Positions 12,241 through 52,603 of a stretch of 64,000 nt of DNA are shown in pieces. Numbering within the stretch: position 1 is the stretch's first letter; each line of letters opens with the position of its first letter. Origin of the DNA: an uncultured Chloroflexia bacterium (GTDB lineage: Bacteria > Chloroflexota > Dehalococcoidia > DSTF01 > WHTK01); the NCBI GenBank assembly GCA_963732945.1, contig CAVTBL010000004.1:273864-337863 (forward strand). The letters are read 5' to 3'. The position numbers and the translations under genes were made by a program. Under the pieces are notes generated by a model. That model was not told the origin of the DNA. It did not search any database and worked only from the letters and a program-made list of their open reading frames with translations.

Positions 12241-12250
12241 CGCCTGCCTC

Positions 12251-15346: not shown

Positions 15347-15365
15347 GGCCCCTCCTTCACGGTCG

Positions 15366-18624: not shown

Positions 18625-18648
18625 TCTTCGTTCTCTCAGTGCAACGAC

Positions 18649-18687: not shown

Positions 18688-18710
18688 ATCCGTCAGGAGG
18701 GGCTTTGGCC

Positions 18711-28234: not shown

Positions 28235-28260
28235 ACATCGCTCGACTGAAAGGCACAATC

Positions 28261-29484
28261 ATGGCCGCGAAATCACGAGTACTGATCATCGACGAAGACC
28301 TCGATAGCCGCGTCGAGACGCGCAAGGCGATTCAGCGCGCGGGCCTGGACAACGCCGGCGAGGTCGGCTTCGGCGCCGAGGCCGTGACCACCGCCAGCGA
28401 AGTGCGCCCCGACGTGCTGCTGATCGCCGTCGAGGAGCCGGTCACGCGCGCGCTGGAGACGGTCGACTCGCTGGCCAACGTGCTGCCCGAGACGCCGATC
28501 ATCTTCTACGCATCCAGCACGGACGCGGACTCGGTACGCCGCGCCGTGATCTACGGCGCCCGCGACTACCTGATCAAGCCGCTGCAGGCCGAGGGCCTCA
28601 AGCAGGCCGTGATCCGCGCCCTCGAGTTCGAAGAGAAACGCCACATGCGCCAGGCGGGGCAGCTCGCATCGGCGCCGGTGCGCGGCACCGTGATCACGGT
28701 CGCGGGCGCCAAGGGCGGCATCGGCAAGTCGGTGATCGCGACCAACCTCGCGCTCGCGTTGCGACAGAAGACGCAGGCCAGCGTCGTCATCGTCGACGCC
28801 GACACGCACTTCGGCGACATCGCGACAATGCTCGACGTGACGCCCACGGTCACGGCCGCCGATCTGCTGCGCGACCTGCCGAAGCTGGACCGCAACAAGA
28901 TCCACGACTACCTCACCGAGGCGCCGCTCGGCGTCTGGGTCCTCGCCGGCTCTCGCGACGAGGACAACGTCTGGGAGGCGGCCGACAAGGACAGCGGTAA
29001 GAAGATCGTCGAGCTCCTGTCGCTCTCGCACGACTTCATCATCGTCGACACGTCCGGTGCCATGGACAGCTTCGTGCGTGAGGTGATCAGCGCCTCGACG
29101 CTGGTGCTCCTGGTTACGACAGGCGAGGTCTCGAGCGTGCGTGATACACGGTCCGCGCTCAACCGCTTGAAGAGTTGGTCGGTGCCGGCCGAGAAGGTCA
29201 AGATTCTCCTCAACCGCGGCGCCCGGGCCGACGGCTTCCAGGTCGCCGACATCGAGAAGAGCCTCGACCGCCCGATCTTCTGGGAGCTACCGCGAGACCG
29301 CGAGGTGGGACGCTCGATTCAGCTCGGCCGCCCCGTCGTTATCGAGAAGCCGGGCACGGCTGCCGCGCGCAACATCACTGCACTGGCTGAGGCGATTGGT
29401 GGCAACGTCAGGACCGCGACGTCCAACGGCCACCGCCCAGGGCTGATGTCTCGCTTCAGCAGAACGAAGCAGGTGGTGGCATGA
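28261..29484 (+). CDS. tadZ: TadZ/CpaE: atypical receiver domain fused to a ParA/MinD-type ATPase
   Basis: It has a REC-like N-terminus (VLIIDED) with Ala at the expected acceptor-Asp position (LLIAVEEP). The deviant Walker A is AGAKGGIGKS. Confidence 0.85.
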   Translation: MAAKSRVLIIDEDLDSRVETRKAIQRAGLDNAGEVGFGAEAVTTASEVRPDVLLIAVEEPVTRALETVDSLANVLPETPIIFYASSTDADSVRRAVIYGARDYLIKPLQAEGLKQAVIRALEFEEKRHMRQAGQLASAPVRGTVITVAGAKGGIGKSVIATNLALALRQKTQASVVIVDADTHFGDIATMLDVTPTVTAADLLRDLPKLDRNKIHDYLTEAPLGVWVLAGSRDEDNVWEAADKDSGKKIVELLSLSHDFIIVDTSGAMDSFVREVISASTLVLLVTTGEVSSVRDTRSALNRLKSWSVPAEKVKILLNRGARADGFQVADIEKSLDRPIFWELPRDREVGRSIQLGRPVVIEKPGTAAARNITALAEAIGGNVRTATSNGHRPGLMSRFSRTKQVVA

Positions 29485-30788
29485 CGTCCTGGCAGACCAT
29501 CCTCCCGCGGGTAGAGCCCGACAGCACCAGCGAGATCGAGGAGGCCGTACACCAGCGTGTGATCCGCGCCGTCAACGATTCCGAGATTCGCGGCCTCGGC
29601 AAGGAGCAGGCGCGGCCCATCGTCGCGGACGCCACGCGGCGTCTCCTCACGGAAGAGTACCCGGCCGTCGTCGGCGACTCGAAGGACGAGCTCGTCACGC
29701 GTATCGTCGATGAGATAACGGGTCTGGGGCCGATCGAAGGGCTGCTGCGCGACCCGAGCGTATCCGAAGTCATGGTCAACGCGCCGGACGAGGTCTACTT
29801 CGAGCGCGACGGCATCATCCACGAGTCCGATGTGCACTTCAGAAACGATGCGCACGTCATGCGCATCGTCGAGCGAATCACGTCGGCGCTCGGTCGTCAT
29901 GTCGACGAAGCGTCGCCTATGGTCGACGCGCGCCTCGAGGACGGCTCACGTGTCAACGTAATCATTCCGCCGCTGGTGCCGCGCAGCGCCGTCCTGACGA
30001 TTCGCAAGTTCCGCGCCGACATGTTCTCCATGAACGATCTCGTGCACGCCGGCACGCTGTCGCGGCAGATGGCGGACTTCCTTGGCGGCTGCGTCCAGGC
30101 GAAGCTCAACATCGTCGTCTCCGGTGGCACCGGTACCGGTAAGACAACGCTGCTGAACGCCCTTTCAGCCTTCATCCCGATGCGAGAACGCATCATCAGC
30201 ATCGAGGACCCGCTCGAGATGCAGCTTCAGCAGAAGCACGTCATCGCCATGGAAGCGCGTCCGCCTTCCGTCGAAGGCGCCGGCGAGGTGACGCAGCGCA
30301 TGCTCCTGCGCAACGCGCTGCGCATGCGCCCGGACCGCATCATCGTCGGCGAGGTTCGTGGCTCCGAGGCCTTCGACATGATGCAGGCGATGAACACCGG
30401 TCACGAGGGCTCGCTGACCACGGTTCACGCCAACTCACCGAGAGACGCCCTCGCACGCATCGAGAACATGGTCCTGATGGCCGGCTTCGAGTTGCCCGTG
30501 GCGGTGATTCGCGAGCAGATGGCGTCGGCGCTCCACGTCGTGATCCATCTCTCCCGCCTCTTCGATGGCAGCCGTAGGGTCGTCAACATCAGCGAAGTGT
30601 CCGGCATGGAAGGCAACGTGATCACGATGCAGGACATTTTCCTGTTCCATCAGGACGACATCACGTCGGACGGGCGCGTCGTTGGCGATCTGAGGCCGAC
30701 GGGTTTGCGTCCGCACTTCGTCGACCGTCTCAAGTCATTCGGTATCGAGTTCAGCGACGACATCTTCGGTGTCGCGAGGTGGACCTGA
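29481..30788 (+). CDS. tadA: TadA/CpaF secretion ATPase
   Basis: It has Walker A ([10 protein letters not shown]), Asp/His boxes and [12 protein letters not shown]. An ATGA overlap links it to tadZ. Confidence 0.9.
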
Positions 30789-30789
30789 C

Positions 30790-31746
30790 GTGGATCCTTC
30801 TATCCTCATAGCCGGTGCCGCCGCGGCGGGTGCTGTGTTCGTCGCAACGCTTACGCTGCAACGCAACGCCAGCACGAGCCGCGAGCTGATTCAGTCCCGG
30901 ATAAGCTCCGATGGCTCGCCGAACATCGCACAGCCGCGGCTCCAGCTTGCGATCCCACGCATGGCTTCACTGTCGCAGCGGGGTCAGCGACTTGCGCGCG
31001 ACCTCGATAGGGCCGGTGTAGCGCTGACCGTGAGCGAGTACATGATGGTGCGGACCGCCGTCGCGGTGTTGGGCTCCATCGTTGCCCTCCTGCTGGCCTC
31101 CTCATTCTCCGCGGGCATGGCAGTCAAAATCGGTGCGGCCGTCTTCGGCTTCATCTTTGGCTACTGGTTACCGGGGCAGTACATCAACGGTCGTAAGGCA
31201 CGCAGATTGAAGCGCATCGAAGATGAGCTGGTCGAGGTCATGGTCTCGATGGCGAAGTCGCTGCGCGCCGGGGTCGGCCTGACGCAGGCTCTCGAGTATG
31301 CCGGGCGCGATGCTCCCGACCCCCTGGGCAGCGAGCTCCTGCGCGTGGTGCGCGAGCTACAGCTCGGTGCCGATGTTGAAAACGTGTTCGAGGAGATGAA
31401 TGCTCGCATCGCCAGCCCCGACCTCGAGATCGCCTCGGCGGCGATCATTATTCAGCGCAGAGTCGGCGGCAACCTCTCCGAAGTCCTCACTAATGTGGCG
31501 AACACGATTCGAGAGCGAAGAGCGATTCGTAACGAGCTGAACGCGATTACCGCGAAGCAGCGCCTGCAGGGCAACGCCTCGGCTTTGATTCCTGTATTTG
31601 TGGCCGTCTTCTTTTTCTTCGTGAACCATGACACGGCCAAGCTGCTGTTCACCACGACGGCCGGCAACATCGCGCTCGCGGTCGGCATCTTCTTCGAGGT
31701 CGCCGGCCTGTGGATGGTGCGCCGCTTTGGAGCAATCGAGGTCTGA
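30790..31746 (+). CDS. tadB: TadB (T2SS-F-like inner-membrane platform protein)
   Basis: It has a T2SSF domain pattern (LVEVMVSMAKSLRAGVGLTQAL) and terminal TM helices. The GTG at 30790 follows AGGTGGA. Confidence 0.8.
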   Translation: MDPSILIAGAAAAGAVFVATLTLQRNASTSRELIQSRISSDGSPNIAQPRLQLAIPRMASLSQRGQRLARDLDRAGVALTVSEYMMVRTAVAVLGSIVALLLASSFSAGMAVKIGAAVFGFIFGYWLPGQYINGRKARRLKRIEDELVEVMVSMAKSLRAGVGLTQALEYAGRDAPDPLGSELLRVVRELQLGADVENVFEEMNARIASPDLEIASAAIIIQRRVGGNLSEVLTNVANTIRERRAIRNELNAITAKQRLQGNASALIPVFVAVFFFFVNHDTAKLLFTTTAGNIALAVGIFFEVAGLWMVRRFGAIEV

Positions 31747-31747
31747 T

Positions 31748-32665
31748 ATGCCGCTGCTGATTGGACTCCTGACCTTTGTCGCCGTGATGCTGCTCGTCAG
31801 CTACGTGGCCCAGCCTCGTCAGGATGAGGTTCGGCGCCGCATCCTGGCGGGCGGCTCCGGCGGTGCAGAATCGAGCGAGCCGTCCAGTGCGTCATTCGGC
31901 AAGAGGCTGATCCGCCCGATGTTCAGCTGGCTCGGCTCCGGCTTCGGCAAGCTGCTGCCCCAACACATGATTCAGAGCCTCGAGACCACGCTGGTCCAGG
32001 CCGGCGAGCCCATGGCGCTGTCGAGCTTTCTCGCAATCTGGGGACTGGTCGCATCGTTGGCAGCGCTGGCCGTCTTCTGGCTCCTTACCGCGCAGGCCGA
32101 CTGGGGCTTCGGGCGCCTGTTCGTTTTGAGCGCCCTGATTCTCGTGTATTCGATTGGCACGCCGTACCTGCTGCTCAGGCGCCGCGCCGGCAAGCGCAAG
32201 AAGCGCATCGAGCGGGCCCTGCCGGATGCCCTCGATCTGCTCCTCACGTGCATCGAAGCCGGTCTGGGCGTGGACGCTGCCTTCGCGCTCGTGGCGCAGA
32301 GGTCGACGGGTCCGCTGGCCGAGGTGCTTACGGAATACCTGAGACTCGTCGGGTTCGGGCAGTCACGCCGCGACGCTCTCGAATACATCAGCCAGCGCTC
32401 CGGCGCTCCCGGGCTGAATCGTCTGGCCGCGGTAGTGGCGCAGGCCACGGCTGTCGGAACCACCATGGGCGACGTGCTGCGCGTTCAGGCAGCCGAGCTG
32501 CGTGAGGCTCGCCGCCTCAAGGCGCAGGAGGCGGCCGCAAAAGCACCGATCTGGATGACGATTCCGCTGGCGCTGTGCTTCATGCCGGCCATGGGCGCCG
32601 TCATCGTGGTGCCTTCCATTCTTCATCTCTTGAATTCGATAAAGGACCTGGGGTTAAGAGCATGA
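31748..32665 (+). CDS. tadC: TadC (T2SS-F-like platform protein)
   Basis: It has LPDALDLLLTCIEAGLGVDAAF plus TM helices. The ATG lies 1 nt after the tadB stop. Confidence 0.8.
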   Translation: MPLLIGLLTFVAVMLLVSYVAQPRQDEVRRRILAGGSGGAESSEPSSASFGKRLIRPMFSWLGSGFGKLLPQHMIQSLETTLVQAGEPMALSSFLAIWGLVASLAALAVFWLLTAQADWGFGRLFVLSALILVYSIGTPYLLLRRRAGKRKKRIERALPDALDLLLTCIEAGLGVDAAFALVAQRSTGPLAEVLTEYLRLVGFGQSRRDALEYISQRSGAPGLNRLAAVVAQATAVGTTMGDVLRVQAAELREARRLKAQEAAAKAPIWMTIPLALCFMPAMGAVIVVPSILHLLNSIKDLGLRA

Positions 32666-33228
32666 CTTACGCAACTGAAGCCAGAAGCATGACCGGGCGA
32701 GACTCGACGTTCTACGCCTATCTGGCGGTTCCAGTACTGGAGCTGCTCGCACTCGTCGTCATGACGTTCCTGCCCGATCGCGTTGCCGCGGCGCTGCTCA
32801 CCGAAGTCACGGTTGTGTTGCTGCTGTACCTGGGGCTGATCGACTTTCTCACCCTCAAAGTGCCGAACCTGATCGTGTACCCATCGATTGCGTTCGTGCT
32901 GATCGGCACGGCGCTGGTCAAGATGAGCGCGCTCGATAATGCGCTGCTTGGTGGAGGGGCGCTGCTCGGCATCATGTTCGTTCTCGCAATCATCGGCCGC
33001 GGTTCGATGGGCATGGGCGACGTCAAGTTCGCCTGCCTGCTGGGCTGCGCGCTGGGACCGATTGTTGGCGTGCTCGCGCTGGCGTCCGGCTTCGTCGTCG
33101 GCGCAGTAAGCGCGATCGTGCTGCTGGTTCTGCACCTGAAAGGCCGAAAGGATTCGGTGCCGCTCACGCCTTATCTCGCGATAGGCGGGATCGTCTGGAT
33201 CCTGCTCATCGGCACGCTGGTGAAGTAG
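32662..33228 (+). CDS. tadV: A24-family prepilin peptidase (TadV/CpaA type, no methyltransferase domain)
   Basis: The two catalytic Asp contexts are LIDFLTLKVPN and GMGDVKF. It is polytopic and has an ATGA overlap with tadC. Confidence 0.85.
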   Translation: MTYATEARSMTGRDSTFYAYLAVPVLELLALVVMTFLPDRVAAALLTEVTVVLLLYLGLIDFLTLKVPNLIVYPSIAFVLIGTALVKMSALDNALLGGGALLGIMFVLAIIGRGSMGMGDVKFACLLGCALGPIVGVLALASGFVVGAVSAIVLLVLHLKGRKDSVPLTPYLAIGGIVWILLIGTLVK

Positions 33229-33721: not shown

Positions 33722-36700
33722 ATGAATCTATCTCGGCTCAAATTCCTGGCGATCGCGCTTGGCGCTTTCGTAGTTGCGTTCGCCTTCGCGGGCACCGGAA
33801 CAGCTTCCAACCCGACTACAGCCGTGGCGGCGCCGACGGTAAACATCCCGTTGAACAACGACACTGCCGGCGCAGCGCAGGGCTGTCCGACCGACGGCGC
33901 TGCCTACTGGCACTTCGTCATCACGCCGAACAGCGGTGGCTCGTCTTTCGTGACATTCCACCTCAATCTTGGCGATGTGAGCACGTATGACACGAGCTCT
34001 TACGTGCCGAACGGGGCCCAGACAGACAACGTCTTCGTACAGGTTCCCGCCGGGAAGACGCTTACATCGCTGGACAATACTGGCAGCAGCGCCGACGTCA
34101 CATGGGACGGCACTCACGCGCCCAGCAAGTTCACGCTCAGCGGTACCTGCGCGGGTTCCGCCCCCAGTCCCGACGTTGGCGTGGCCAAGAGCGACAACAC
34201 CTCGCACAGCGTTACCGCCGGCGGGACCTTCAACTGGACCCTTACGATCACGGTGACCAACGGCCCGACTTCGGCGACGGTGCAAGACACGATCCCGAGC
34301 GGCTTCGCCATCGGCAGCGTTACCGACAAGAACAGCGGCAACGCCGACGAGTCGAGCATCGTGTGCAATACGTCGACACAAACCGTGACCTGCTCGCTCA
34401 ACGCTACGCCCAGTGGCACCTACACCGTGACGATCCCGGTAACGGCGCCGACGGGCACCCCGACGACGAACTGCAAGCAGTACACGAACACCGCCAACAT
34501 CACGAACGGCGGCGGTAGCAACACGCAGAATGACACCGCCAGCGATTCCGTCACGGTGCTGTGCCCCGCGCAGCCCGACGTCGCGATTGCCAAGAGCGAC
34601 AACACATCGCACAGCGTTCACGCCGGCGGGACGTTCAACTGGGTGCTGACGATCACCGTGACCAACGGCCCGGCTTCGGCGACCGTGCAGGACACGGTCC
34701 CGAGCGGCTTCGCCATCGGCAGCGTCACGGACAAAAACAGCGGCAACGTCGACGAGTCCAGCATCGTCTGTAACACGGCGTCGCAGACTGTCACCTGCAC
34801 GCTGACCAGCACTGCGACCGGTACCTACACCGTGACGATCCCGGTTACGGCGCCGGACGGCTCGCCTGGCTCCGAGTGCACCAGCTTCCAGAACACGGCC
34901 TCGATTACCGCGGGCGGCGGCACCAACGCCAGCAACGACTCGGCCAACGACTCCGTGACCGTGACCTGCCCCGACGTCGGCGTTAGCAAATCGGACGACA
35001 CTGGCGGCACGGTTCAGGCAGGCGGCTCGTTCAACTGGCTCGTAACGGTCAGCGTGACCAACGGTCCCGCTTCCGGGACGATCCAGGACACGGTGCCCGC
35101 CAACTTCATCATCGGAACGCCCGGCGCCGACAGCGGCACCATTGGCTGCAGCAAGCTCGGTCAGGTCGTCACCTGCACCTTGACCAATACTCCGACCGGC
35201 AGTCACACGATCACGATTCCTGTCACGGCGCCGAGCAGCACCGCGCTTGCCGCCTGCGCCAGCTATGAGAACGACGTCTCGATCACGGCCGGCGGCGGCA
35301 CGAACGCCAACAACGACTCGGCGAGCGACTCCGTCACCGTGACCTGCCCCGACGTCGGCATCAGCAAGACGAACAACGTCAACGGCAGCGTCGCCGCCGG
35401 TGGCAGCTTCAACTGGGTCCTGACGGTCAGCGTGACCAACGGTCCGGCTTCGGCGACCGTCCAGGACACGGTCCCGGCTGGCTTCAGCATCGGCAGCGTC
35501 ACCGACAACGCCGCGAGCATCGACTGCGGTACGGCGTCTCAGACCGTCACGTGCACGTTGACAGACACCCCGACCGGCACCTACACCGTGACGATTCCGG
35601 TCACGGCGCCCGGCTCGGACCCGTCCGACAACTGCAAGGCGTATGAGAACGACGCCTCGATAACGTCGGGCGGCGGCACGAACGGCAACAACGACAGCGC
35701 GAGCAACTCGGTGACCGTGCTCTGTCCCGCGCAGCCCGACGTCGGCATCAGCAAGACCGACAACACTCAGGGCAGCGTTCATGCTGGCGGCGGCTTCGAC
35801 TGGACACTGACCGTGACCGTGACTAACGGCCCGGCTTCGGCCACTGTCGTCGACAACGTGCCCGCGGGCTTCACGATCGGTAGCGTCACGGACGCCAACA
35901 GCACGCCTGCCGACGAGGCGACGATCGGCTGCAGCACGAGCCTAGCAGACCGTCACCTGCACGCTGACCAGCACGCCGACTGGTACCTATACGATCACGA
36001 TTCCGGTCACGGCGCCCGCGGCCACGGTCGCGGACGCCTGTGCACCGCACGAGAACGTCGCTAACGTCACGGTCGGCGGCGGTACCAACGCGAACAACGA
36101 CAGCGCTAACGACGCCGTCACGGTGGTTTGCCCGGACGTTGGCGTCAGCAAGAGCGACGACACGCAGGGCAGCACTCACGCCGGCGGCTCGTTCAACTGG
36201 CTCGTCACGATCAGCGTGACCAACGGCCCGGCTTCCGCCACGGTAGAGGACACGGTCCCTGCGAACTTCGCGATCGGTAGCGTGAGTGCAAACGACGCGA
36301 GCATCGACTGCAGCAACGTATCTCAGACCGTTACCTGTACGCTGACCAACACTCCGACCGGTACGTACACCGTCACGATCCCGGTGACCGCCCCCGCCGC
36401 CAGCGTCGACGGAGCCTGTGCCAACCACGAGAACGACGTCGTGGTCACTTCCGGCGGCGGCACCAACGCCAACAACGACTCGGCCAGCGACACCGTTGGC
36501 GTCATCTGCCCCGATGTCGGCGTGTTCAAGAGCAACGACGCGGGCGGCTCCATCACCGCCGGCGGCTCGTTCACCTGGACGGTCACCGTTGCCGTCACCG
36601 ACGGCCCGGCCTCGGGCACTGTGCAGGACACGGTCCCGGCCGGCTTCGCTATCGGCAACTTCAGCTCCAACGAGGCGACGATCGACTGCGGCGCGGCCGG

Positions 36701-37947
36701 CGCAGGTCGTGACGTGTACGCTGACCAACACGCCGAATGGCAGCTACGCCGTGTCGATCCCGGTGACCGCGCCCAGCGACAACCCGAATACGAACTGCAC
36801 GCAGTACAACAACACCGCCACGATCACCGATGGCGGTGGCACCAGCAGCGCCAACGACTCGGCCAGCGACCCGATGACGGTCGTTTGCCCCGGCCAGGCG
36901 GTGCTCTCCATCGTCAAGTCGGGTGACGCAACCGTCACGACCGGCGACACCGTGAGCTACGGCGTGACCGTAACTAACACCTCGGCCCTCGGCGCCAACA
37001 GCGTCGTGGTTACGGACGACCTGCCGAACAGCCTCACCGGCGTCACGGCGACCTACGACGTCGACCCGACGACAGCGGGCGGCACCGGGAGCTGCAGCGT
37101 CGGGGTGGGCAACAGCGTGACATGTAATGTCGGCGCCCTCGCGGCCAGCGACGGCAACACGAGTGCGCCTGAGGCGGACGTGGTCCAGGTCTCGATCAGC
37201 GCAACCGTCACCGGCTGCGCCACGCTGACCAACCAGGCGACCGTCACCTACTCCACGGACGGCAGCGCTCAGCCGCCGAACGTCGTCGACAGCAACATCG
37301 TCACGACCGACGTGACCTGTGGCTCGATCACGATCGTCAAGAACGCGGTGCCGAACAGCACGCAGGACTTCGGTTTCAGCGGCGATCTCGGCGCCTTCAC
37401 GCTCGACGACGACGGTAACAACAACAACGCGTTCTCGAACACAGTGGTGTTCAACGACCTCGGCATCGACACCTACGTCGTTACTGAGAACGTGACCGCC
37501 GGCTGGCTAGTCAACTCGATTACGTGCAGCGACGGCAGCGCCACCAGCGTGACTACCCGCTCCGCGGTGATTCAGCTTGCCGGTGGCGAAGACGTTACGT
37601 GTACGTTCGTCAACGTAACCGACCCGGGGACAATCCCGCCCGTTACGCCTCCGTTCACGCCGCCGGTGACACCGCCGCTGGTCGTGCCGCCGCCTGCCAA
37701 CGTCACCACGGTGACGACGCTGCCGCTGATTGCACAGGTGCAGGGAGCGGTCTCGGTACCTTCGACGCAGCCGACCACGCCGGGGCTGATCTCGGAGGTC
37801 GAGGGCGTACGCACGCTGCCGGGCACCGGTACGGGCGGCTACCTCAATTCGGAGAGCTCGTCTGGTCCCGCTAGCTGGCTCGTTGGGCTGCTTGCGGCCG
37901 TCGGCGTTAGCTTCCTCCTCCTGCGCGTCCGTAGGGGCGCGCGGTGA
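33722..37947 (+). pseudogene. Wall-anchored adhesin of about 1,400 aa: signal peptide, N-terminal domain, 7 tandem DUF11-like modules, canonical DUF11 module, prealbumin-like domain, Pro-rich stalk, LPGTG sorting signal; two frame breaks
   Basis: The signal peptide is MNLSRLKFLAIALGAFVVAFAFA. The modules begin CPDVG[VI]SK. The C-terminus is LPGTG followed by a hydrophobic segment and RVRRGAR. The frame shifts near 35945 and near 36700. Confidence 0.8.
34169..36890 (+). repeat. Seven tandem coding repeats of about 378-405 bp (about 130-aa modules)
   Basis: Module starts (CCC/CCG GAC/GAT GTY) lie at about 34169, 34574, 34970, 35348, 35735, 36132 and 36510. The next, divergent module starts near 36888. 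Confidence 0.85.
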
Positions 37948-38609
37948 GGAGCTGGCGCGGCTTCTGGCTGAGCGTCTTCGCGCTGCTGGTCGCCAGCTTC
38001 GCGCTGGGTGCGGGCCTGCTCGTCTGGCAGGGAGACAGCTCCAGTTCGAAGCCCGAGAGCACCAGCGCCAGCACTGAAGTAACGCGGCCGGCGGCGAAAC
38101 CGTCGCAGCCGGCCGCGCCGAATCAGGCGCCGGCGGGCTCGACTAGTGCGGCCGCTCCGGTCGACCTGCACGCGATCTCGCGGCTCGTCGTACCGGGTGT
38201 CGGCATCGATGCGCCGGTCGTGACGCTGGGCGTCAACTCGGACGGCGTCATGCAGTCGCCGGCCACTCCGACCGATGTCGGCTGGTACAACTTCTCGTCG
38301 CTCCCCGGCGGTGGCAGCAACATCGTCCTGTCCGGGCACGTCGACTACGTGAACTACGGCCCGGCGATCTTCTGGAACCTGCGCGAGCTCAAGCCAGACG
38401 ACGTCGTACAGGTCGTTCTGGACAACGGCTCGGTCGTCAATTATCACGTGACGACAGTGACGACCTACGATGACCAGACGGCGCCGGTACAGCAGATCAT
38501 CGGTGCGACGCCCGCGGAGACGATCACGATGATCACCTGCACCGGCACCTTCGATACGCAGTCGCGGGAATACGACAAGCGTCTCGTGGTCCGCGCCGTC
38601 AGGACCTGA
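37944..38609 (+). CDS. Sortase (class E/F-like) transpeptidase
   Basis: The GTG overlaps the adhesin TGA (GTGA). It has an N-terminal TM segment, catalytic His (LSGHVD), ITMITCTG (the TLxTC equivalent) and a C-terminal Arg (RLVVRA). Confidence 0.85.
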   Translation: MRSWRGFWLSVFALLVASFALGAGLLVWQGDSSSSKPESTSASTEVTRPAAKPSQPAAPNQAPAGSTSAAAPVDLHAISRLVVPGVGIDAPVVTLGVNSDGVMQSPATPTDVGWYNFSSLPGGGSNIVLSGHVDYVNYGPAIFWNLRELKPDDVVQVVLDNGSVVNYHVTTVTTYDDQTAPVQQIIGATPAETITMITCTGTFDTQSREYDKRLVVRAVRT

Positions 38610-39082: not shown

Positions 39083-39241
39083 CACATAGCCTCCGCAACA
39101 ACGATGGCGCATTGCATTCCGCAAAGCTGACCGTATCTGTCGAGGTTGCTTTGCGGAACTTCTCTGCGCTAATAGCTTCTGTATTATTAATCTGGTTGAT
39201 CTCACCGAATTCGTCGAAATAGTAGCAAATAATCGTCGAGT

Positions 39242-40810
39242 CTATTCGACGAGCTTGTAGCCCTGCGTATCAGTGTCGATGTAGCGCGTAAACTTGATCT
39301 GTATGTCCTGTGACCCGCCCTGCGAGAACGTCTTCGTGATGATCTGTACGGAGCCAAAGTTGCCGCCGCCCGTGACCTGCATGTTTGCGTTCGGGAAGTA
39401 CATGATGCCGGTCGTGGTCCAGGCCGAGCCGCTGCTCGATCCGGCGAACTTGAACTGCTGGCTACACGAATCGTCTTGCCAGAACAGCATGTTCAAGTAG
39501 CCCGTGAGCGAAGTCGAGTGCGAAACGGTCGGTGCGGCCAGCTTGAGTACACCACTGCCTGTGATGCTCATGCCCTGGCACGCCTGTTCCGTCGATTTGT
39601 TGGCGTAGGGGTCAGATGTGTTGAAGATCGTGACGCCGGTCGCCGTCGGGCAGTTGTCCGAGGCGGTCGCGGGGCCGCAGATGTTGCCGCTTTGATAGCT
39701 GAAGCCGCCGCCGTTGCCGTTGTGGTCCGCACCCGCGAACACGTAGATCCCGGGTTGGAAGTGCACAGTCTGGCTGGTGCTGTTGATCTTCAGCCCGCCG
39801 TAATAGGTACCCGGCTGCAGCGTGACGTCGCCAGCGCCGGTGAGAGAGGTGATCGTCGGGTTCGTAGCGGCGGACCGTTGGTTCGCCGAGCAGGGGATCG
39901 CGTGGTTGCCACAGGCAGTTAGTGAAATCGGGACGCAGTTGGTAGGCGTCGTAGCGCTGAAGTCCGAGCACCCTACCGGTCGCGGGCAGTACTCAGCAGA
40001 CTGGTTACCGGGCGGACTGCATGACAGTGGATCCGGGAATAACGGCGCTTTTGTCGGCTTCGGAGACGCTGTCGAATTGCTCGGGACGCTCCAGCTGCCG
40101 CGGCTGTTGTAGTCCAGCTTGCAATCGATGACGTCGCCCGCTTTGTCATAGCAGGTCTGGGCTGTGACCACGCTGCCGCCGTTCTGTGCTGCAGAGATGC
40201 CGGTACAGCTACCGCCGGTCGTTGCCGCCGAGTCGACCACGGCACCACCGCCGGTGATCGTGATGTTGCTGCTGGTTGTAAACGCGTCGCACTGCGTCTT
40301 ATCCAGCACGATGAGGGCGTAGTTGCGCTTGAGCGGCGTTGCGCCGCCCACCGCCCGCGCTTCGACCCGGGCAGTCTTCACGCCGAGAATGCGGATGAAG
40401 ACCGTGGGGTCGTTTCGGGTGATTCGAACTTCGATGTATGAGTGGTCGCCGATGTGCTTGCCGGAAGTCGGCGGCAGGTTCACCGTCACTTCGCTGTTGG
40501 GGCAGGTGCCGGTGCCGAGGCCGTTCTTCTCGGCGTAAGTGCAGGCGATCTGCTTGGCCTGGTCTTCGACACCGTCAGTGCCGAAGTTGTACATCAGGTA
40601 CTGTGCGCCTGCCAGCGCGGCGGCATCCGCGGTGCGCTGTCGTTCGGTCCGATGCAGCATCAGCAGGCCGACATCGAGTGCGAGCCCGGCGAAGCCTATG
40701 ATGAGCGGCGTCAGAAGACCCGCGATGATGATGATCTGGCCTCGCTCACCCCAGCGTGCAGCGAATATTAGCCTCAGCTTCGAACCCCAACCGTCAGCGC
40801 TGCGCCTCAT
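39242..40810 (-). CDS. tadG: TadG-like protein (pair 3), 522 aa, Cys-rich ectodomain
   Basis: It has ERGQIIIIAGLLTPLIIGFAGLALDVGLLMLHRTERQRTADAAALAGAQ, the TadG N-terminal signature. Confidence 0.75.
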   Translation of the reverse strand: MRRSADGWGSKLRLIFAARWGERGQIIIIAGLLTPLIIGFAGLALDVGLLMLHRTERQRTADAAALAGAQYLMYNFGTDGVEDQAKQIACTYAEKNGLGTGTCPNSEVTVNLPPTSGKHIGDHSYIEVRITRNDPTVFIRILGVKTARVEARAVGGATPLKRNYALIVLDKTQCDAFTTSSNITITGGGAVVDSAATTGGSCTGISAAQNGGSVVTAQTCYDKAGDVIDCKLDYNSRGSWSVPSNSTASPKPTKAPLFPDPLSCSPPGNQSAEYCPRPVGCSDFSATTPTNCVPISLTACGNHAIPCSANQRSAATNPTITSLTGAGDVTLQPGTYYGGLKINSTSQTVHFQPGIYVFAGADHNGNGGGFSYQSGNICGPATASDNCPTATGVTIFNTSDPYANKSTEQACQGMSITGSGVLKLAAPTVSHSTSLTGYLNMLFWQDDSCSQQFKFAGSSSGSAWTTTGIMYFPNANMQVTGGGNFGSVQIITKTFSQGGSQDIQIKFTRYIDTDTQGYKLVE

Positions 40811-40830: not shown

Positions 40831-41307
40831 CTACTCGGACCGCATCCTGGTCGTCGACGTGAAGGTGATCGAGTCCGATCCGCCGAGGATCCTCACGATG
40901 CCGCCGAGCGGCGTGATGAAGTTGTAGGTGTACTGCGCCGTCACGACCACTTCCGATCCGGTGGAGCAGGGCGTGGTTGCCTGGATAACGTTGGCGGCTG
41001 TGAGGCCCAGTGCGCTGCCGGAGTCGACTACCTGCGCGATGGCGGCGTTGGAGGCGGTCGTCGTGTCATCGCCCTCGCAGACCACGCCGACTCGGGCGCC
41101 TTCACGCGCGGCGTTGGTCAGCATGATGTCTGCACGCAGCGCCATGCCGAAATCGATGATCCCAAGGACTACTACCACGAATACGGGAATAACGACGGCG
41201 AATTCGACCATTGACTGGCCGCGTTCCCTGCGTCGTCTGGTCTGGGTTCGGTCGGAATTCTGGCGTCCTGGGCGTGCGTCCGGTGACGCAACGTGATCGA
41301 TGCCCAT
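40831..41307 (-). CDS. tadE: TadE-like pseudopilin (pair 3)
   Basis: The ATG follows AAGGGAGGG. It has ERGQSMVEFAVVIPVFVVVVLGIIDFG...NAAREGAR and the C-terminus ...RMRSE. Confidence 0.75.
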   Translation of the reverse strand: MGIDHVASPDARPGRQNSDRTQTRRRRERGQSMVEFAVVIPVFVVVVLGIIDFGMALRADIMLTNAAREGARVGVVCEGDDTTTASNAAIAQVVDSGSALGLTAANVIQATTPCSTGSEVVVTAQYTYNFITPLGGIVRILGGSDSITFTSTTRMRSE

Positions 41308-41490
41308 CTCGCCCTCCCTTATGCATATTCGGCAGACGTGCCGAAACACGAAGGGCGTGAGACATCAAATCGCCAGATTAGGCGCTACGTAGAGAGTATC
41401 GGCCGCATCCCAGCGAACCTTTAGTTATTTGACCTATCTTCTTCAAAACTCGATTTCGTCGGCTGGCGGATCGATGGGGCGAGGCAGATG

Positions 41491-42960
41491 TCAGTTCTGC
41501 CCGTTGCCGTTGCCGCTGTTACCGGAGCCGGCGTTGCCGTTGCCGCCGGAGCCAGCGTTACCGTTGCCGTTGCCGTTGCCAGCGTTGCCGTTGCCGGAGC
41601 CAGCGCTGCCGTTGCCGTTGCCGGAGCCAGCGTTGCCGTTGTTACCGGAGCCAGCGCTGCCGTTGCCGTTGCCGGAGCCAGCGTTGCCGCTACCGTTGTT
41701 CGAACCGCCATTCCCGTTGCCATTGTCGGTGCCGCCGCTGCCGTTGCCATTGTTCGAACCGCCGTTCCCGTTGCCGTTGCCGGAGTTGCCGTTCCCGTTG
41801 CCATTGCCGTTGTTGCCGGAGCCCGCGTTGCCGTTGCCGTTGTTGCCGTTGCCGGCGTTGCCGTTGCCGGCGTTGCCGTTGCCGGCGTTGCCGTTGCCGG
41901 CGTTGCCGTTGCCGGCGTTGCCGTTGCCGTTGTCGGTGCCGCCGCTGCCGTTACCGTTGTTCGAACCGCCGTTCCCGTTACCGTTGTTCGAACCGCCGTT
42001 CCCGTTACCGTTGCCGTTGTTGCCGGAGTTGCCGTTGCCGTTACCGTTGTTCGAACCGCCGTTCCCATTGCCGTTGTCGGTGCCGCCGCTGCCGTTACCG
42101 TTGTTCGAACCGCCGTTCCCGTTACCGTTGCCGTTGTTGCCGGAGCCCGCGTTGCCGTTGTTGCCGTTGCCGTTGCCATTGCCGTTGCCATTGTCGGTAC
42201 CGTCGCTGCCGTTGCCGTTGTTCGAACCGCCGTTCCCGTTGCCGGGGTTGTCGACCTGACCGGGAGGGTTGACCACGCTCGCAGGACTGGCTGCCGGCGC
42301 GGCGCCGGAGCCGCTGCTCTTCGGCTCCTCGGTGGAGGAGGTCACAGGGTTGGTTGCGCCGCTGCCTTCATCGTTGCTGCCGGATGCGATCGACGGTGTC
42401 GGCGTGGTGGGCGTTGTCACGATGGACGGGACTTCCGTTTGCTGGCCGTCCGGCAGGCTATCGAGTACCGGCTTGCCGGGTTGAGTAAGGTTGCCGGCCC
42501 CTTCGCCGGTTCCGGTCGCTCCAGTGGCGTTCCCGGACTTATCGTGTGACGAACCTCCGGTTACCGCGGCCTCGATCGAATGTAGTGCGCCCGTCAGCGG
42601 CTGTGTCGAGACCGAGCCCGAGGCGAACGCTCCCGCGACGCCCAGGCCGATACCGATGGCTCCGATCACCGCCAGGAAGCGAGGGCCGGTGCCGCGATGT
42701 TTCGTCAGGCCGGAGCGGAATCGGCGCAGCTCGGCACGCATAGCCTTGCGCGCGGAGGCGGTTGCTTCCATTGAAGGAGCGGGCGTCTCGACGGCGAGTA
42801 GGCTCTGGAGCCCGGCCAGCTCACGAATCGCCGGCGCCAGGTCGGGGTGCGCTGCGAGCACGCTCTCGCCATCGCCGCGGTCGACCTGCTCGAGGTAAGC
42901 GGCCAGCACTTCGACGAGTTCGTCTTCGGGAGGACGTTTGCCAAACCTTCTCGAAGTCAT
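41491..42960 (-). CDS. Putative anti-sigma factor: cytoplasmic N-domain, one TM helix, extracytoplasmic region ending in about 250 aa of Gly/Asn(/Ser) low complexity
   Basis: It has an ATGA overlap with the upstream ECF sigma gene. The TM segment is FLAVIGAIGIGLGVAGAFA. The tail is ...NGNGNGGSNNGNGSGGTDNGNGN... and runs to the stop. The anti-sigma role is inferred from position and topology. Confidence 0.55.
   Translation of the reverse strand: MTSRRFGKRPPEDELVEVLAAYLEQVDRGDGESVLAAHPDLAPAIRELAGLQSLLAVETPAPSMEATASARKAMRAELRRFRSGLTKHRGTGPRFLAVIGAIGIGLGVAGAFASGSVSTQPLTGALHSIEAAVTGGSSHDKSGNATGATGTGEGAGNLTQPGKPVLDSLPDGQQTEVPSIVTTPTTPTPSIASGSNDEGSGATNPVTSSTEEPKSSGSGAAPAASPASVVNPPGQVDNPGNGNGGSNNGNGSDGTDNGNGNGNGNGNNGNAGSGNNGNGNGNGGSNNGNGSGGTDNGNGNGGSNNGNGNGNSGNNGNGNGNGGSNNGNGNGGSNNGNGSGGTDNGNGNAGNGNAGNGNAGNGNAGNGNAGNGNNGNGNAGSGNNGNGNGNGNSGNGNGNGGSNNGNGSGGTDNGNGNGGSNNGSGNAGSGNGNGSAGSGNNGNAGSGNGNGSAGSGNGNAGNGNGNGNAGSGGNGNAGSGNSGNGNGQN
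41494..42250 (-). repeat. Coding low-complexity repeat array built from GTT/GCC-rich 6-, 15- and roughly 50-100-bp units
   Basis: It includes a perfect 15-bp x5 tandem repeat (GCCGGCGTTGCCGTT, 41851-41925). Longer units recur, encoding GGSNNGNG and NGSGGTDN. Confidence 0.9.
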
Positions 42961-43595
42961 GCTCGGTCCTCGTCGACAAGATGCTTGCGCAGGTTCACGA
43001 GCGCCCTCGCCTGAAGTGAATACACCGCGGTCTGCGTCTTACCGATGATGCCGGCGACATCCTGCGCGGCGAGGCCCATCAGGTAGCGCAGGATAATCAC
43101 CTGTCGTTGCTCGTTCGGCAGGCTCCGGATTGCGTTGAACAAATCGATGCTGGCTGCAAGGCCTTCGACCCCGGGCTCGATGGCATCGGCATCGGGCGCC
43201 GTGATCATTGCCCGCCGCGCCTCCGCTTTGAGCCTGTCGTATATCAGATTATGCTCGATGCGATACAGCCAGGCGAGGACCGGCCGTCCCGTGTACTCGA
43301 AGCTTTTGATGCCACGCAGCGCCTCGACGAATACCTGCGAGGCCATGTCCTCAGCCTCGCCGCGGTTGCGCAGACGAATGTAGGCGTAGCGGAAGAGGCG
43401 CGGGTAGAACTCCTGGAACCACTGGTCCCAGAGCTCGGGATCGCCGGCCTTGGCCCGGGCGACCTCGCGTATCTCGGCCTGCTGCCGGTCCAGATGAGCC
43501 CTCGCCGATGCGGCAGTCTCGCGCCCCGTGGTTTCTCCGGGGCCGCTTCCCTCGCTGGCCGCCATGTCCCCAATCACGAGCTTGAAGACCCGCAT
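42957..43595 (-). CDS. ECF-type sigma-70 family RNA polymerase sigma factor (pair 1)
   Basis: Region 2 reads FQEFYPRLFRYAYIRLRNRGEAEDMASQVF. Region 4 reads LPNEQRQVIILRYLMGLAAQDVAGIIGKTQTAVYSLQARAL. Confidence 0.85.
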   Translation of the reverse strand: MRVFKLVIGDMAASEGSGPGETTGRETAASARAHLDRQQAEIREVARAKAGDPELWDQWFQEFYPRLFRYAYIRLRNRGEAEDMASQVFVEALRGIKSFEYTGRPVLAWLYRIEHNLIYDRLKAEARRAMITAPDADAIEPGVEGLAASIDLFNAIRSLPNEQRQVIILRYLMGLAAQDVAGIIGKTQTAVYSLQARALVNLRKHLVDEDRA

Positions 43596-44124
43596 ACAGG
43601 GTTACTATCGGTTTCCCGCGTTAGAGGCACAGACGTAGCGCCTTACTTCTCCGGCCCTGATTGGCCACAGGCTTCGATAAGTCACCAGGCTGGCGTTTCC
43701 GCGCCGGAATTACCGCCAACATCCTGTCCCTTCATGCTGCCCGATTGAGCGCCGATCCTGAGCCACGCCTGGGTCCCGAGGCTGCCGAGTTTGGCCACGA
43801 TCAGACGCCTTCGGCCCCGAGTATGCACCGCTTTTAGCCTCGACGCCAAATCATTTCCTCGAGACGCCATGAGCAAAGAATTTTTCGAAATTCTCCCGCT
43901 CCGACGTTCAGTAATTCGCACTGATCTGCATGTATTGAGCGGTGGGGTGTCACTTACTACAACGCAATAACCCCGTACTTGATTTCAGGTGGAATGCCGG
44001 CAAGCGCCCATAACAACGGGCGAGAAATCGAATTGATGAGACTCCCCGCAGGAGGAACAGGCAGGTAGTAGTCGGCTAAACAGATCTCCCAGGGAGCGGG
44101 AATTTTCAGCAAGGAAGCAGATCG

Positions 44125-50198: not shown

Positions 50199-50810
50199 GT
50201 GACCAGCGCGCGCACTCTTAGCGGTCAGCCTGCAGCCGATGAGCGAGAACCCGATCTCGTTCGAGACCTGAAGGCGCGCTCGCCCCAGGCCTGGGAGCAG
50301 CTGTTCAACGATCACTACGAACGTCTCGTGCGCTACGTCGCGGTGCGCGTTCGCAACCTCGAGGAAGCGCAGGACGTTGCCTCCAGCGTCTTTTTGCGGG
50401 CGCTGAAGAACATCGACACATACCGGTACACCGGGAAGCCGGTCGTGGCCTGGCTCTACGGTATCGCGCAAAACCTCTTGAGGGAGCGGTTCCGCAGGGT
50501 CAAGCAGGAGACCGGGTTCGATGCCTCCGAGGCGTTGCTGAACATGGCCGCTGCCGGGACCTTGAACGGCGCCAGCGGCTCGACCGCGCATATCGAGAGA
50601 CTCGACCTTGAAATCGAGATCTCGCGGCTCACGCCTCTCCAACAGGAAGTGCTCGTCTTGAGGTATATAGCCGGCTTTCGTGGGCGCGAAGTAGCCTCCA
50701 TGTTGGGAAAGAGCGAAAGGGCAGTCTACTATCTCGAGGCAAGGGGACTGGTGCGATTGCGCGATAGTCTCGGTCTTGAGGTAAAGAAGGCGGGTCAGGC
50801 CAATGACTGA
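50199..50810 (+). CDS. ECF-type sigma factor (pair 2), paralog of 42957-43595
   Basis: It reads WEQLFNDHYERLVRYVAVRVRNLEEAQDVASSVF...GKPVVAWLYGIAQN...LTPLQQEVLVLRYIAGFRGREVASMLGKSERAVYYLEARGL. Confidence 0.85.
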   Translation: MTSARTLSGQPAADEREPDLVRDLKARSPQAWEQLFNDHYERLVRYVAVRVRNLEEAQDVASSVFLRALKNIDTYRYTGKPVVAWLYGIAQNLLRERFRRVKQETGFDASEALLNMAAAGTLNGASGSTAHIERLDLEIEISRLTPLQQEVLVLRYIAGFRGREVASMLGKSERAVYYLEARGLVRLRDSLGLEVKKAGQAND

Positions 50811-52060
50811 ACGCCGGAACCGGCTCAGCGAGGTGTTTGGTGACACGCTGGCGCGCCTGACCACGGATTCGAGTGTCGCGTCGGTGGTGGCGTACCTTCA
50901 GGACTACGAGCGCCTCGTGCTGGACAGCGGCCTCAGCCCCGACAGCCTTGTCCCTACCGAGACAGACGTTCAGGCGATCTTCCGGCTGATCCTGGACCTC
51001 CGCACCTTGACGCTCGAGGTGCCGCAGGCCAACGCTCGAGATCGCTTCATGCGCCAGGTCGCCATCGCGCGCGCCGATTACCTCGCCGACAGGGCCAGGA
51101 AGGCGGCCCGTCGCAGCAAGGCGAACAGCATTGCCGCGGGCGTGGCCGCGGTCTGCATCCTCGCGGCAACCGCGAGCGTCGCCGGCGCGACCAGCGACCT
51201 GCCGAAAGTCACGCTACCGGTCTCCCTGCAGGACATCGTCGACGCGATCTCCCCCTCAAAACCCGCAGACCAGAACGGCTCCCAGGCAGCGCCCACGCTG
51301 CCGTCTAACGTGTCCAGCGCCAATCAGGTGACGGGGCTCACTGGCGTCGATAGCGAGAACAGCGGCATCTCGGCCGACGGTTTGCCTGGCGTCGCCGAAC
51401 TGCGCCAGGTCCTGGAGACGCTGCAGAGCACCCTGCTCGACGAGCAAACGGCATCGCCGGCGGCGTCAGGCGACGTCACTTTCGGAGCAGAGACCTCGAA
51501 AGGGTCGAGCCAGGCTCCGCTCGCGCCTAACACCGCTTCGAGCACGCAGAGCGCCGCCGGCCAGTCAACTGCCACCGGGAGCTCTTCTGTGCAGTCGGGC
51601 TCTGTCGCTAGTCAGCCCAGCACGCCGGCAACGCAGCCGGCCACGTCTCCTGTCGACATGCAGCCGGGTTCAGATCACTCCGGGACAACCGGCGGCCAAT
51701 CGGCTTCGGCGCCCGGCGTGACCGGCGCGACACCTGGTCAGAGCGGTTCGACTCCTGGTCAGAGCGGCGGGGGAGGCGGTAGCCAACCGAGCACCGCACC
51801 GGGCTTGACGGGCTCGACGCCTGGGCTGAATGACTCGGCGCCGGGTCTGTCCGGTTCAACCCCCGGTCAGTCCAGTTCGGCCCCTGGTAATTCGGGCTCC
51901 GCTCCGGGTAACTCTGGCTCCAGTCCGGGTCAGTCTGACGCCACACCCGGCGGGCTCCGGCTCGGCTCCGGCTCAGTCCGACTCCTCGGCCAGCTCGGGC
52001 ACGAATGCCGGCCAGTCTGGCTCATCGAACGGCTCCTCAGACTCTCATGCCGGACACTAG
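50803..52060 (+). pseudogene. Putative anti-sigma factor (pair 2) with one TM helix and a Ser/Gly/Pro/Thr-rich tail; one frame break near the 3' end
   Basis: It overlaps the sigma gene by 8 nt. The TM segment is IAAGVAAVCILAATASVAGA. An extra G in the GGG run at 51952-51954 breaks the frame. The corrected tail ends ...SSNGSSDSHAGH* at 52060. Confidence 0.55.
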
Positions 52061-52603
52061 GCCTGAAGCACAGCCGGCGTCTGAACTCGCTCAGACGATG
52101 CGCATCTGAACGTCGGGTGCACGCAGCAGCAGCCAGAGCGAGCGCTTCGGGCTTCTTAGCCGAACGCCAACCTGACGCCGGGTGATCGACCACAAGATTC
52201 ACCTGGCGCGAAGAAGAGTTCTCTGGGTACGGGCCGCTGGGCTCCACGTTCGCTCGAAATGGCCACATCTCTAGACGCCGTCCACCACGCGTCCGCCCTC
52301 AGCTGGCTCCCCGAGAGGACCGGTCGGACGCTGAGCCTGTTCGGTAGACCTATCTATTCCCGTCGAAGGCCGTTAGACTGAGAAGGTACCCCTCAGGTAA
52401 TCCCTAGCTTTCAGACCAGCCAGCTTCCCAAAGCCGACCTCTTTGTTCTAGGGCCACTTGCTTCAGGCCTGATTCAGAGGACGGTTTGATTCCTCGTGAC
52501 TGGCATTCAGTACCGGCTTCGTCCGCGGGCGAGTACGCAGGTCCAACCGTGCGCAACCCGATGACTGGCCGAGCGACATTCTTGTCGGATTGGAAGGTAT
52601 GAC

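Follow-up and report, generated by a model that had tools for sequence, protein, structure and literature searches.

We sought to account for an unusual protein encoded at positions 41491..42960 on the minus strand of a 64,000-nucleotide contig segment (hereafter the window) from an uncultured Chloroflexia bacterium. The gene is coupled to the gene of a sigma factor of the extracytoplasmic function (ECF) class, and its product, most likely the anti-sigma factor of that sigma, crosses the membrane once and ends in 252 residues of almost pure Gly/Asn repeat. By analogy with RsgI of Bacillus subtilis, the unstructured extracytoplasmic tail would be a sensing or tethering arm on a putative anti-sigma factor and would control sigma release, a reading to which we give about an even chance. 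The tail is most likely unusual in composition and not in kind, being an extreme version of the known disordered tails on wall-sensing regulators. The protein belongs to an undescribed, small Chloroflexota family of putative anti-sigma factors paired with a BldN-like ECF sigma. The reading builds on direct observation of gene structure, coupling to sigma, topology signals, repeat anatomy, the pattern of tails in the family and the absence of predicted structure. The features of the gene and its partner are as follows.

41491..42960, minus strand: open reading frame (ORF) of the anti-sigma-like protein, 489 aa, ATG start, stop codon 41491-41493 (ORF list)
42957..43595, minus strand: ECF sigma factor gene, 212 aa, sigma-BldN-like (Pfam, NCBIfam and PDB match)
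42682..42960, minus strand: predicted cytoplasmic N-terminal helical domain, aa 1-93 (AlphaFold; conserved in 11 homologs)
42622..42681, minus strand: single Gly-rich transmembrane (TM) helix, aa 94-113 (hydropathy; AlphaFold helix 94-113)
42250..42621, minus strand: conserved juxtamembrane segment, aa 114-146, and Ser/Thr/Pro/Gly-rich linker to aa 237 (identity to the closest relative, L133; composition)
41494..42249, minus strand: Gly/Asn(/Ser/Ala) repeat tail, aa 238-489, 252 aa (composition, repeat structure)
41842..41929, minus strand: perfect period-15 run, 5.9 copies, encoding (NGNAG)n (Tandem Repeats Finder)

Three other long ORFs overlie the repeat array. They arise because DNA of the (AACGGC)n type contains stop codons in none of its six frames, and by themselves they are no evidence for alternative genes. 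In the tail, Asn is encoded by AAC 88 times and by AAT 7 times, GGC accounts for 80 of the 107 Gly codons, and the G+C share at third codon positions (GC3) is 0.88. Between copies of an 18-aa repeat unit, 25 codon-pair differences are synonymous and 3 non-synonymous. GC3 and the synonymous excess between repeat copies show selection on a coding frame. We rejected this pattern as decisive proof of which frame is coding, since the antisense Leu-Pro frame has identical third positions and the pattern cannot separate the two. The Gly/Asn (GN) frame is fixed by its homologous upstream codons, by the overlap of its ATG with the sigma stop codon, and by G/N-rich tails that are likewise placed in independent assemblies. 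It runs unbroken from a 237-aa N-terminal part that has homologs elsewhere, as found by an exhaustive phmmer search with residues 1-237 against 1.8 billion representatives, and it starts on the stop codon of the sigma gene with a 4-nt overlap (ATGA). Units of the array are 72-87% identical to one another and the longest perfect stretch is 88 bp, so that the array is unlike an assembly artefact in which a repeat has been collapsed or inflated. That the tail is an artefact, whether of a wrong frame, a real antisense gene or a mis-assembled array, is barely credible. Such a view could draw on the stop-free array with its overlapping ORFs, on a codon pattern that is not exclusive to one strand and on frameshifts in related genes from long-read metagenome-assembled genomes (MAGs); against these stand the imperfect repeats, the tails of the independent homologs and the fact that only the GN frame joins the array to a conserved N-terminal domain, a TM helix and a coupled sigma gene. 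ORF 41491..42960 is a real gene, and the earlier note on this DNA had observed it correctly.

The only strongly hydrophobic segment of the protein is FLAVIGAIGIGLGVAGAFA (aa 95-113, mean Kyte-Doolittle value 2.2). Arg, Lys and His residues are clustered directly ahead of it, which indicates an N-in, C-out topology with everything beyond residue 113 outside the membrane. The outer end of the helix carries a nearly invariant small-X-Ala motif (AFA here) followed by SG; across the family no variation is seen at G103 and G105, and little or none at F112 and A113. The N-terminal domain was modelled as helices 11-27, 31-37 and 42-55 (predicted local distance difference test, pLDDT, 82-93) with a longer helix at 64-85 (AlphaFold, family alignment), and it had no credible match in Pfam, NCBIfam, PDB-sequence profile or Foldseek searches. 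On the outside, aa 115-146 are 75% identical to L133, a figure that drops to 44% for aa 147-180. The linker (aa 114-237) is rich in Ser, Thr, Gly, Pro and Ala and contains TTPTTPTPS. The extracytoplasmic part amounts to ~375 residues in total. The whole protein has no Cys residue and no match in Pfam, so neither an RsgI_N nor a SEAL domain was detected. The layout given in the earlier note, a TM helix followed by a Thr/Pro/Ser linker and a Gly/Asn tail of about 250 residues, thus holds with the boundaries aa 94-113, 114-237 and 238-489.

The upstream gene matched Sigma70_r2, Sigma70_r4 and Sigma70_r4_2 in Pfam and did not match region 3, as is the case for ECF (group 4) sigma factors, and it scored 80 bits against TIGR02937 (cutoff 42.9). 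Its top NCBIfam model was the BldN family (TIGR02952) at 109.3 bits, under the cutoff of 206.45, and its best PDB match was 6DXO_A, sigma-BldN of Streptomyces venezuelae (E 1e-21). By these profiles the window sigma is BldN-like but not a member of the BldN family. The start of the anti-sigma-like gene overlaps the sigma stop by 4 nt in 7/7 loci (window, L002, L008, L009, L011, L133 and L134), a count that covers every family locus with enough flanking context. Adjacency and co-orientation, as expected of an anti-sigma gene, are therefore found in the window and kept in 6 further loci. The protein is not of class I or the zinc-binding (ZAS) type, since it matched none of their Pfam and NCBIfam profiles and is without Cys, hence without HxxxCxxC. 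Chain B of 6DXO, the anti-sigma factor RsbN, was not returned by the PDB profile search or by Foldseek run on a model with a mean pLDDT of only 62; the number and lengths of the helices in that same model are compatible with RsbN residues 1-91. The free N-terminal domain may fold only on sigma. Because there is no domain match, anti-sigma function is something that we infer from conserved gene coupling and architecture, and the parallel with RsbN, the partner of sigma-BldN, strengthens that inference. The window protein is most likely the dedicated partner and anti-sigma factor of the upstream sigma. What the earlier note had called anti-sigma-like is accordingly a single-pass, N-in protein that is coupled to an ECF sigma in all 7 related loci.

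The tail consists of 107 Gly, 95 Asn, 25 Ser, 14 Ala, 5 Asp, 4 Thr, 1 Pro and 1 Gln. Gly and Asn together make up 80% of it (42% Gly, 38% Asn), Asp is the only charged residue and Ala the only hydrophobic one. The earlier note had called the Asn-rich tract unexpected, and the Asn share is indeed 37.7% in the tail versus 3.4% in 17 other window genes. The perfect 15-bp repeat it reported, five copies at 41851-41925 encoding NGNAG x5, is exact. The recurring units it listed were also recovered: GGSNNGNG occurs 6 times, and the GTDN-bearing motif, in the form G[ST][GD]GTDNGNGN, occurs 4 times, as does the 18-aa unit GGSNNGNGS[G/D]GTDNGNGN. There are 65 Asn-Gly and 69 Gly-Asn dipeptides. Tandem Repeats Finder reported nested periods of 6, 15, 27, 54 and 117 nt with a best score of 585. 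All of these are multiples of 3, so slippage alters the length of the tail and never its frame. Variable length, as the earlier note proposed, is apparent from the 252 aa of this tail versus ~144 aa in L133. The on/off switching of a phase-variable contingency locus, the other half of that proposal, does not stand, since the periods permit in-frame change only.

AlphaFold gave the tail a pLDDT of 24-32 and zero secondary structure; this is weak evidence for disorder, because the run used a single sequence. Low complexity, N-in topology and the lack of predicted structure fit an extracytoplasmic intrinsically disordered region, as the earlier note had supposed. Some Gly-rich repeats do fold, and a repetitive tail with 42% Gly could in principle adopt a polyglycine-II bundle, a collagen-like structure or an RTX-like calcium-binding beta-roll. 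We consider such a fold scarcely plausible. Tail periodicity rules out the collagen and polyglycine-II types: dipeptide alternation is dominant, the dominant periods are 2, 5, 9 and 18 aa, 9-nt-period arrays reach 2-3 copies at most, and a sustained pattern of Gly at every third position is absent. RTX-type repeats are ruled out because the tail offers no hydrophobic residue for the U position of the RTX/PGRS nonapeptide GGxGxDxUx. The pLDDT of ~25 and the lack of conservation of the units among relatives also speak against a defined fold.

Glycosylation was suggested in the earlier note as a function of the tail. Seven NGS sequons lie in the tail and 2 N-X-T sequons in the linker, and extracytoplasmic Ser/Thr-rich disordered regions are reported to be glycosylated in streptococci (PMC12041528). 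The 7 NGS sequons are to be compared with ~11 expected from composition, so that sequons are not enriched; the tail is poor in Ser and Thr, and no oligosaccharyltransferase of the STT3/PglB type was found among the window genes scanned. A tail that serves as an N- or O-glycosylation substrate is very improbable.

The phmmer search returned 11 proteins only (best E 1.5e-42, 46% identity), one of which, P0002, was discarded as a spurious repeat protein. Word-indexed searches were uninformative, as the N-terminal 237 aa missed even itself and the family profile retrieved P0006 alone. The family is small, with about a dozen members; any that are named are called 'hypothetical protein', and their MAGs are labelled Chloroflexia or Dehalococcoidia. 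The alignment shows a conserved N-terminal helical pattern, E..VLA.YLE..E.GGD.E..L..HP, and a TM end that is nearly invariantly AFA, GFA or GVA; conservation then continues into a brief juxtamembrane stretch. No member is without a low-complexity tail of tandem repeats, yet from one member to the next the units are wholly different (among them NGNAG, GGSNNGNGSGGTDNGNGN, PGLSGDNPGNGGNP and GQGNGNGQPENP). The earlier note had named a tail that is dispensable or absent in homologs as grounds for refutation; absent it is not. Tails of the relatives read as follows.

P0001: PGLSGDNPGNGGNP
P0003: GQGNGNGQPENP
P0010: GSDGTPPGGGGANPGNGDDNGV
L134 (= P0006): PDGTPPGQGGDNPGNGNGNAGGNSGNSNAGGNGNGVG
L001, first cassette: NPPGNGSSNGGGNGNGSGS
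P0005: Pro/Thr-rich, then poly-Asp
P0007, P0008, P0009, P0011: Pro/Thr-rich

G/N-rich tails are found throughout the subfamily with the AFASG motif (window, L133, P0001, P0003, P0006/L134 and P0010), with P0005 as the exception. They are kept even though N-terminal identity to the window protein ranges from 28 to 57%. A separate L001 cassette encodes a weak homolog without the AFASG motif, and its tail is still G/N/S-rich. In the closest relative, L133, identity is 82% for sigma, 71% for the N-terminal domain and 95% for the TM helix, and the tail reads NPPGLSGDNPGNGGNPPG followed by ~144 aa of (GN/GNS)n. From these comparisons we conclude that in the AFASG subfamily, P0005 excepted, G/N-rich composition is retained whereas sequence, unit and length change rapidly. 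It can be argued that the tail is under compositional rather than sequence selection, as a disordered region would be. The pure GN tracts of the window protein and L133 give the impression of an older G/N/P repeat that has expanded and been depleted of Pro.

Three MAG contigs carry frameshifted homologous anti-sigma-like genes (L001 2133-3384, L133 8001-9261 and L134 3565-5064). Because of the frameshifts, gene callers report fragments of, for example, 46 aa and 169 aa. The contigs are apparently long-read, as judged from contig names and frameshifts only, and the frameshifts are probably sequencing errors, though the genes may be real pseudogenes. P0006 was considered as a tail-less member and rejected as such, for at its locus, L134, the G/N/P tail continues in other frames past the frameshifts. 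In L001, the sigma most like the window sigma (57% identity) comes just after TadG and lacks an anti-sigma-like neighbour downstream (5941-6510, 6520-7000). Judged only from ORF translations read by eye, the next stretch appears to resemble a tRNA gene and a phage-type fragment, possibly the trace of a rearrangement.

The mechanism that follows is inferred as to sigma binding, to sensing by the tail, to regulated proteolysis and to the regulon. In it, the helical cytoplasmic domain of ~90 aa would hold sigma at the membrane. The Gly/Asn repeat would have arisen when a degenerate array based on AACGGC expanded and was reshuffled in frame. Outside the cell the tail would work by its bulk properties (length, flexibility and an uncharged polar surface) and not through a folded binding site. 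By the scaling law for denatured chains, ~375 residues have a radius of gyration of ~7 nm, an end-to-end distance of ~16 nm and a contour length of ~135 nm. Such a chain could thread into or through the peptidoglycan meshwork, and in the wall it would be a sensing or tethering arm that sets the timing of anti-sigma proteolysis and hence of sigma release. The output of sigma would likely include the TadE/TadG minor pilin genes located directly downstream.

40831..41349, minus strand: TadE-like minor pilin gene, 141 nt downstream (Pfam TadE, E 8e-17)
39242..40810, minus strand: TadG-like (Tad domain) gene, 522 aa (Pfam Tad, E 1.5e-11)
39233..39252, minus strand: terminator-like hairpin with T-rich tail, located where the TadG-like gene ends (consensus match only)

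A consensus scan found no terminator-like site in the gap before the TadE-like gene, nor any earlier than the end of the TadG-like gene, and the hairpin there possibly closes a sigma/anti-sigma/TadE/TadG transcription unit. A scan for sigma-70 consensus promoters found nothing. In the window, CTAAA-N15/16-GGCCGA occurs ahead of the sigma gene (~43800-43835, minus strand) and of the TadE gene (~41385-41420, minus strand), and GGCCGATAC lies ahead of TadE in L009, upstream of 1674. These matches are within chance expectation, and they serve as a lead only for an ECF promoter.

TadE/TadG genes lie downstream of the cassette in 4 loci (window, L001, L009 and L134), and all four tails are G/N-rich. 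This coincidence raises the question of whether the composition itself matters, with the G/N tract binding an envelope polymer or a Tad pilus component, or associating with itself in the manner of an Asn polar zipper or a gel, and thereby coupling pilus or wall status to sigma. Asn-rich sequences are prone to self-association, and a pseudopilin and a Flp-like pilin on unrelated contigs also bear GN tails. The sample is small, the tails of L133 and P0001 are G/N-rich although TadE/TadG do not adjoin them, and the high Gly content speaks against ordered zippers. We regard a composition-specific role as decidedly unlikely.

We scanned metagenome contig DNA for (NG)5, in a sample of at least 120 loci. 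Among the matches listed, the GN-rich span was 35 aa at the median and 176 aa at most, as compared with 259 aa for the window protein by the same measure, and 2-3 of 120 loci were ECF-linked, GN runs being present in many unrelated proteins. C-terminal GN tails were found on a class A penicillin-binding protein (PBP; L094, Transgly and Transpeptidase domains, ~150 aa of G/N/S), on the type II secretion system pseudopilin (L086 864-2036, minus strand, ending ...NGNGNGGSNN) and on the Flp-like pilin (L022 569-991, plus strand, ending in (NG)n and under the Pfam threshold). ECF-linked single-pass proteins unrelated to the window family carry them as well in L108 and L061. A query with the tail alone matched only P0012/L012, another ECF-linked single-pass protein unrelated to the family, with a GN tail of ~100 aa; this search is no measure of how frequent GN tails are, because the composition correction in HMMER suppresses such matches. 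The window tail is extreme in length and purity, yet its type recurs, and GN tails at the C-termini of other membrane-anchored envelope proteins count in favour of the RsgI-like reading. In L061, a 540-aa frame runs from an ECF sigma-like region through a zinc-anti-sigma-like motif (HLAGCRRCR) and a TM segment to a tail that contains GNGNGN runs; one possible explanation is a fused sigma/anti-sigma protein, another a missed stop or start codon.

If the tail did not sense anything, it could be there as a passive spacer, or as a by-product of slippage that the cell tolerates, selected only to be hydrophilic and unstructured, with the signal received elsewhere (by the juxtamembrane segment or by another protein). 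Much of the family pattern would look the same in that case: unit and length change completely among relatives, one subfamily has Pro/Thr tails and one member poly-Asp, the sole conserved extracytoplasmic stretch is aa 114-146, and (NG)n runs are scattered over unrelated metagenome proteins, with the short spans and rare ECF linkage given above for the matches listed. A mere spacer fits less well with a G/N-rich composition that persists in the AFASG subfamily down to ~30% N-terminal identity, with the cost of a 250-aa tail, and with the predominance of synonymous differences between repeat copies. The comparable tail of RsgI is, moreover, functionally required (PMC9732909). We judge the spacer explanation unlikely, though a real contender.

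Several findings weigh against a sensing or tethering tail of the RsgI type. The turnover of units and the Pro/Thr tails of the other subfamily suit a passive spacer equally well. Sequence-profile and fold searches matched the N-terminal domain to none of the known anti-sigma domains. The tail is almost uncharged, as opposed to the charged and polar region of RsgI, and an autoproteolytic domain of the SEAL type was not detected. Linkage to TadE/TadG is not universal, being absent from L133, L008, L002 and L011, and a bipartite promoter motif shared upstream of 8 sigma and 4 TadE genes was not above shuffled controls.

The density of Asn-Gly dipeptides allows a further possibility. Robinson and Robinson reportedly found that no known sequence deamidates faster than Asn-Gly, whose half-time in model peptides is roughly one day (neutral pH, 37 C). 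Since the tail is out of reach of cytoplasmic isoaspartate repair, it would be expected to convert spontaneously to Asp/isoAsp-Gly, and an exposed tail should gain Asp and isoAsp charges with age whatever its function. Conceivably this conversion is itself the signal, the 65 Asn-Gly sites acting as a clock sensitive to pH and temperature that turns a neutral chain polyanionic (Asp/isoAsp-Gly) and so times the age of the anti-sigma factor. Such a clock would alter how the tail is seated within the wall or turn it into a substrate for proteases, and would thus time sigma release and the expression of the Tad minor pilins in slow-growing Chloroflexota. We consider it a long shot. In a weaker form of the idea, G/N tails would be a distinct, selected class of envelope-probing tails on anti-sigma factors, PBPs and pilins.

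Other loci of the window concern the cell envelope. A complete Tad/Flp pilus assembly locus lies at 27422-33228 (plus strand), with CpaB, a CpaE-like ATPase that carries an N-terminal response-regulator receiver domain, CpaF, TadB, TadC and a prepilin peptidase. Two more TadG-like genes are present at 5745-7097 (minus strand) and 25848-26450 (plus strand). At 36418-37947 (plus strand) is a gene for a surface protein with SpaA-like and DUF11 domains that ends in LPGTG, a TM segment and RVRRGAR; it overlaps the start of a sortase gene (37944-38609, plus strand), forming a classical sortase-substrate pair. This pair implies that the organism anchors proteins covalently to a peptidoglycan wall, and it counts in favour of the reading in which the tail reaches into such a wall. 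Two large, secreted-looking repeat proteins (window 20654-22417, minus strand, and L133 9645-10376, minus strand) end in a common PPNTGDAGL a few residues before the stop (...ITPPNTGDAGLKH and ...ISPPNTGDAGLASGR) that is not followed by a hydrophobic anchor, and this motif is possibly a C-terminal sorting signal of an unusual kind. A second ECF sigma gene (50199-50810, plus strand) overlaps a downstream gene (50803-52185, plus strand, 460 aa) whose product has one hydrophobic segment and a repeat tail rich in Ser, Gly, Pro, Thr and Gln (GSTPGQSGSAPGNSGS...). We considered this protein as a family member and set it aside, its homology being unsupported (hhalign profile comparison, probability 1.3%). 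As the partner of the second sigma also has a low-complexity tail, such tails seem to be a habit of this genome. Several paralogs with Meth_synt_2-like domains and with EthD domains adjoin IclR regulators (7811-8950 minus, 12228-13418 minus and 59138-60367 plus strand; 9226-9966 minus, 14666-15421 minus and 18531-19646 plus strand).

So far a single Firmicute system, RsgI, underpins the idea of signalling by extracytoplasmic disordered tails on anti-sigma factors. Should the RsgI-like reading be true, the principle would reach Chloroflexota, a sigma of another class (BldN-like ECF) and an anti-sigma family not yet characterised; should the tail be no more than a spacer, it is a compositional curiosity. 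On one conserved scaffold the family varies its tails naturally (pure GN, GN with Pro, GNQPE, Pro/Thr and poly-Asp), which could separate the role of composition from that of disorder alone. The repeated association with TadE/TadG suggests a possible, so far unstudied regulator for the minor pilins of the Tad pilus, and the density of Asn-Gly raises the question of spontaneous deamidation in bacterial surface proteins.

Four known systems bear comparison with the window protein. In RsiV-like anti-sigma factors the point of likeness is the membrane exit: the small-X-Ala motif at the outer end of the TM helix and the conserved segment after it formally constitute a candidate signal-peptidase-type cleavage site. 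The DUF4179 and lysozyme-binding domains of RsiV are absent from the window protein. An RsiV-like amphipathic juxtamembrane helix was considered and rejected, the hydrophobic moment being not above shuffled controls in most members. Class A PBPs such as B. subtilis PBP1 resemble it in having an extracytoplasmic C-terminal disordered tail on a membrane-anchored envelope protein, a style that L094 shares, and differ from it in protein class and output.

RsgI is the nearest case that is understood by experiment. In B. subtilis, the C-terminal extracytoplasmic disordered region of RsgI is needed for activation of sigma-I under impaired peptidoglycan synthesis; it is poorly conserved, is described as enriched in charged and polar residues, and can be substituted by disparate or scrambled disordered sequences and not by a folded domain (Brunet et al. 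2022, PMC9732909). The C-terminal disordered tail of PBP1 behaves similarly and is interchangeable with that of RsgI (PMC9732909). RsgI is a single-pass anti-sigma factor with a long, poorly conserved, low-complexity disordered extracytoplasmic C-terminus, as the window protein putatively is, and its tolerance of swaps and scrambling matches the turnover of units in the window family. The differences are that the RsgI_N and SEAL domains were undetected in the window protein, that the partner is an ECF sigma as against SigI, that the phylum is another one, and that the tail is an almost uncharged G/N repeat of 252 aa, compared with the 157 aa deleted in the RsgI experiment. The statement in the earlier note that no characterised anti-sigma factor has such a domain therefore fails in kind, given RsgI (PMC9732909), and stands in composition, as the RsgI tail is not a G/N repeat.

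Sigma-BldN is the closest solved relative of the window sigma. Its anti-sigma factor, RsbN, is a single-pass protein whose short three-helix N-domain, a class III anti-sigma domain, is unlike that of any other anti-sigma factor. The extracytoplasmic part of RsbN comprises 272 aa and has no assigned function, and RsbN homologs are reported in Streptomyces only (Schumacher et al. 2018, PMC6101532). No sequence or fold match between RsbN and the window protein was detected, and the window sigma lies below the BldN cutoff. In both systems a BldN-type or BldN-like sigma is paired with a single-pass partner that has a few-helix N-domain and a long extracytoplasmic part and resembles no other anti-sigma factor. 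The sigma-BldN regulon consists of cell-surface structural proteins (chaplins and rodlins), and in the same way the window sigma possibly controls the minor pilins of a Tad system.

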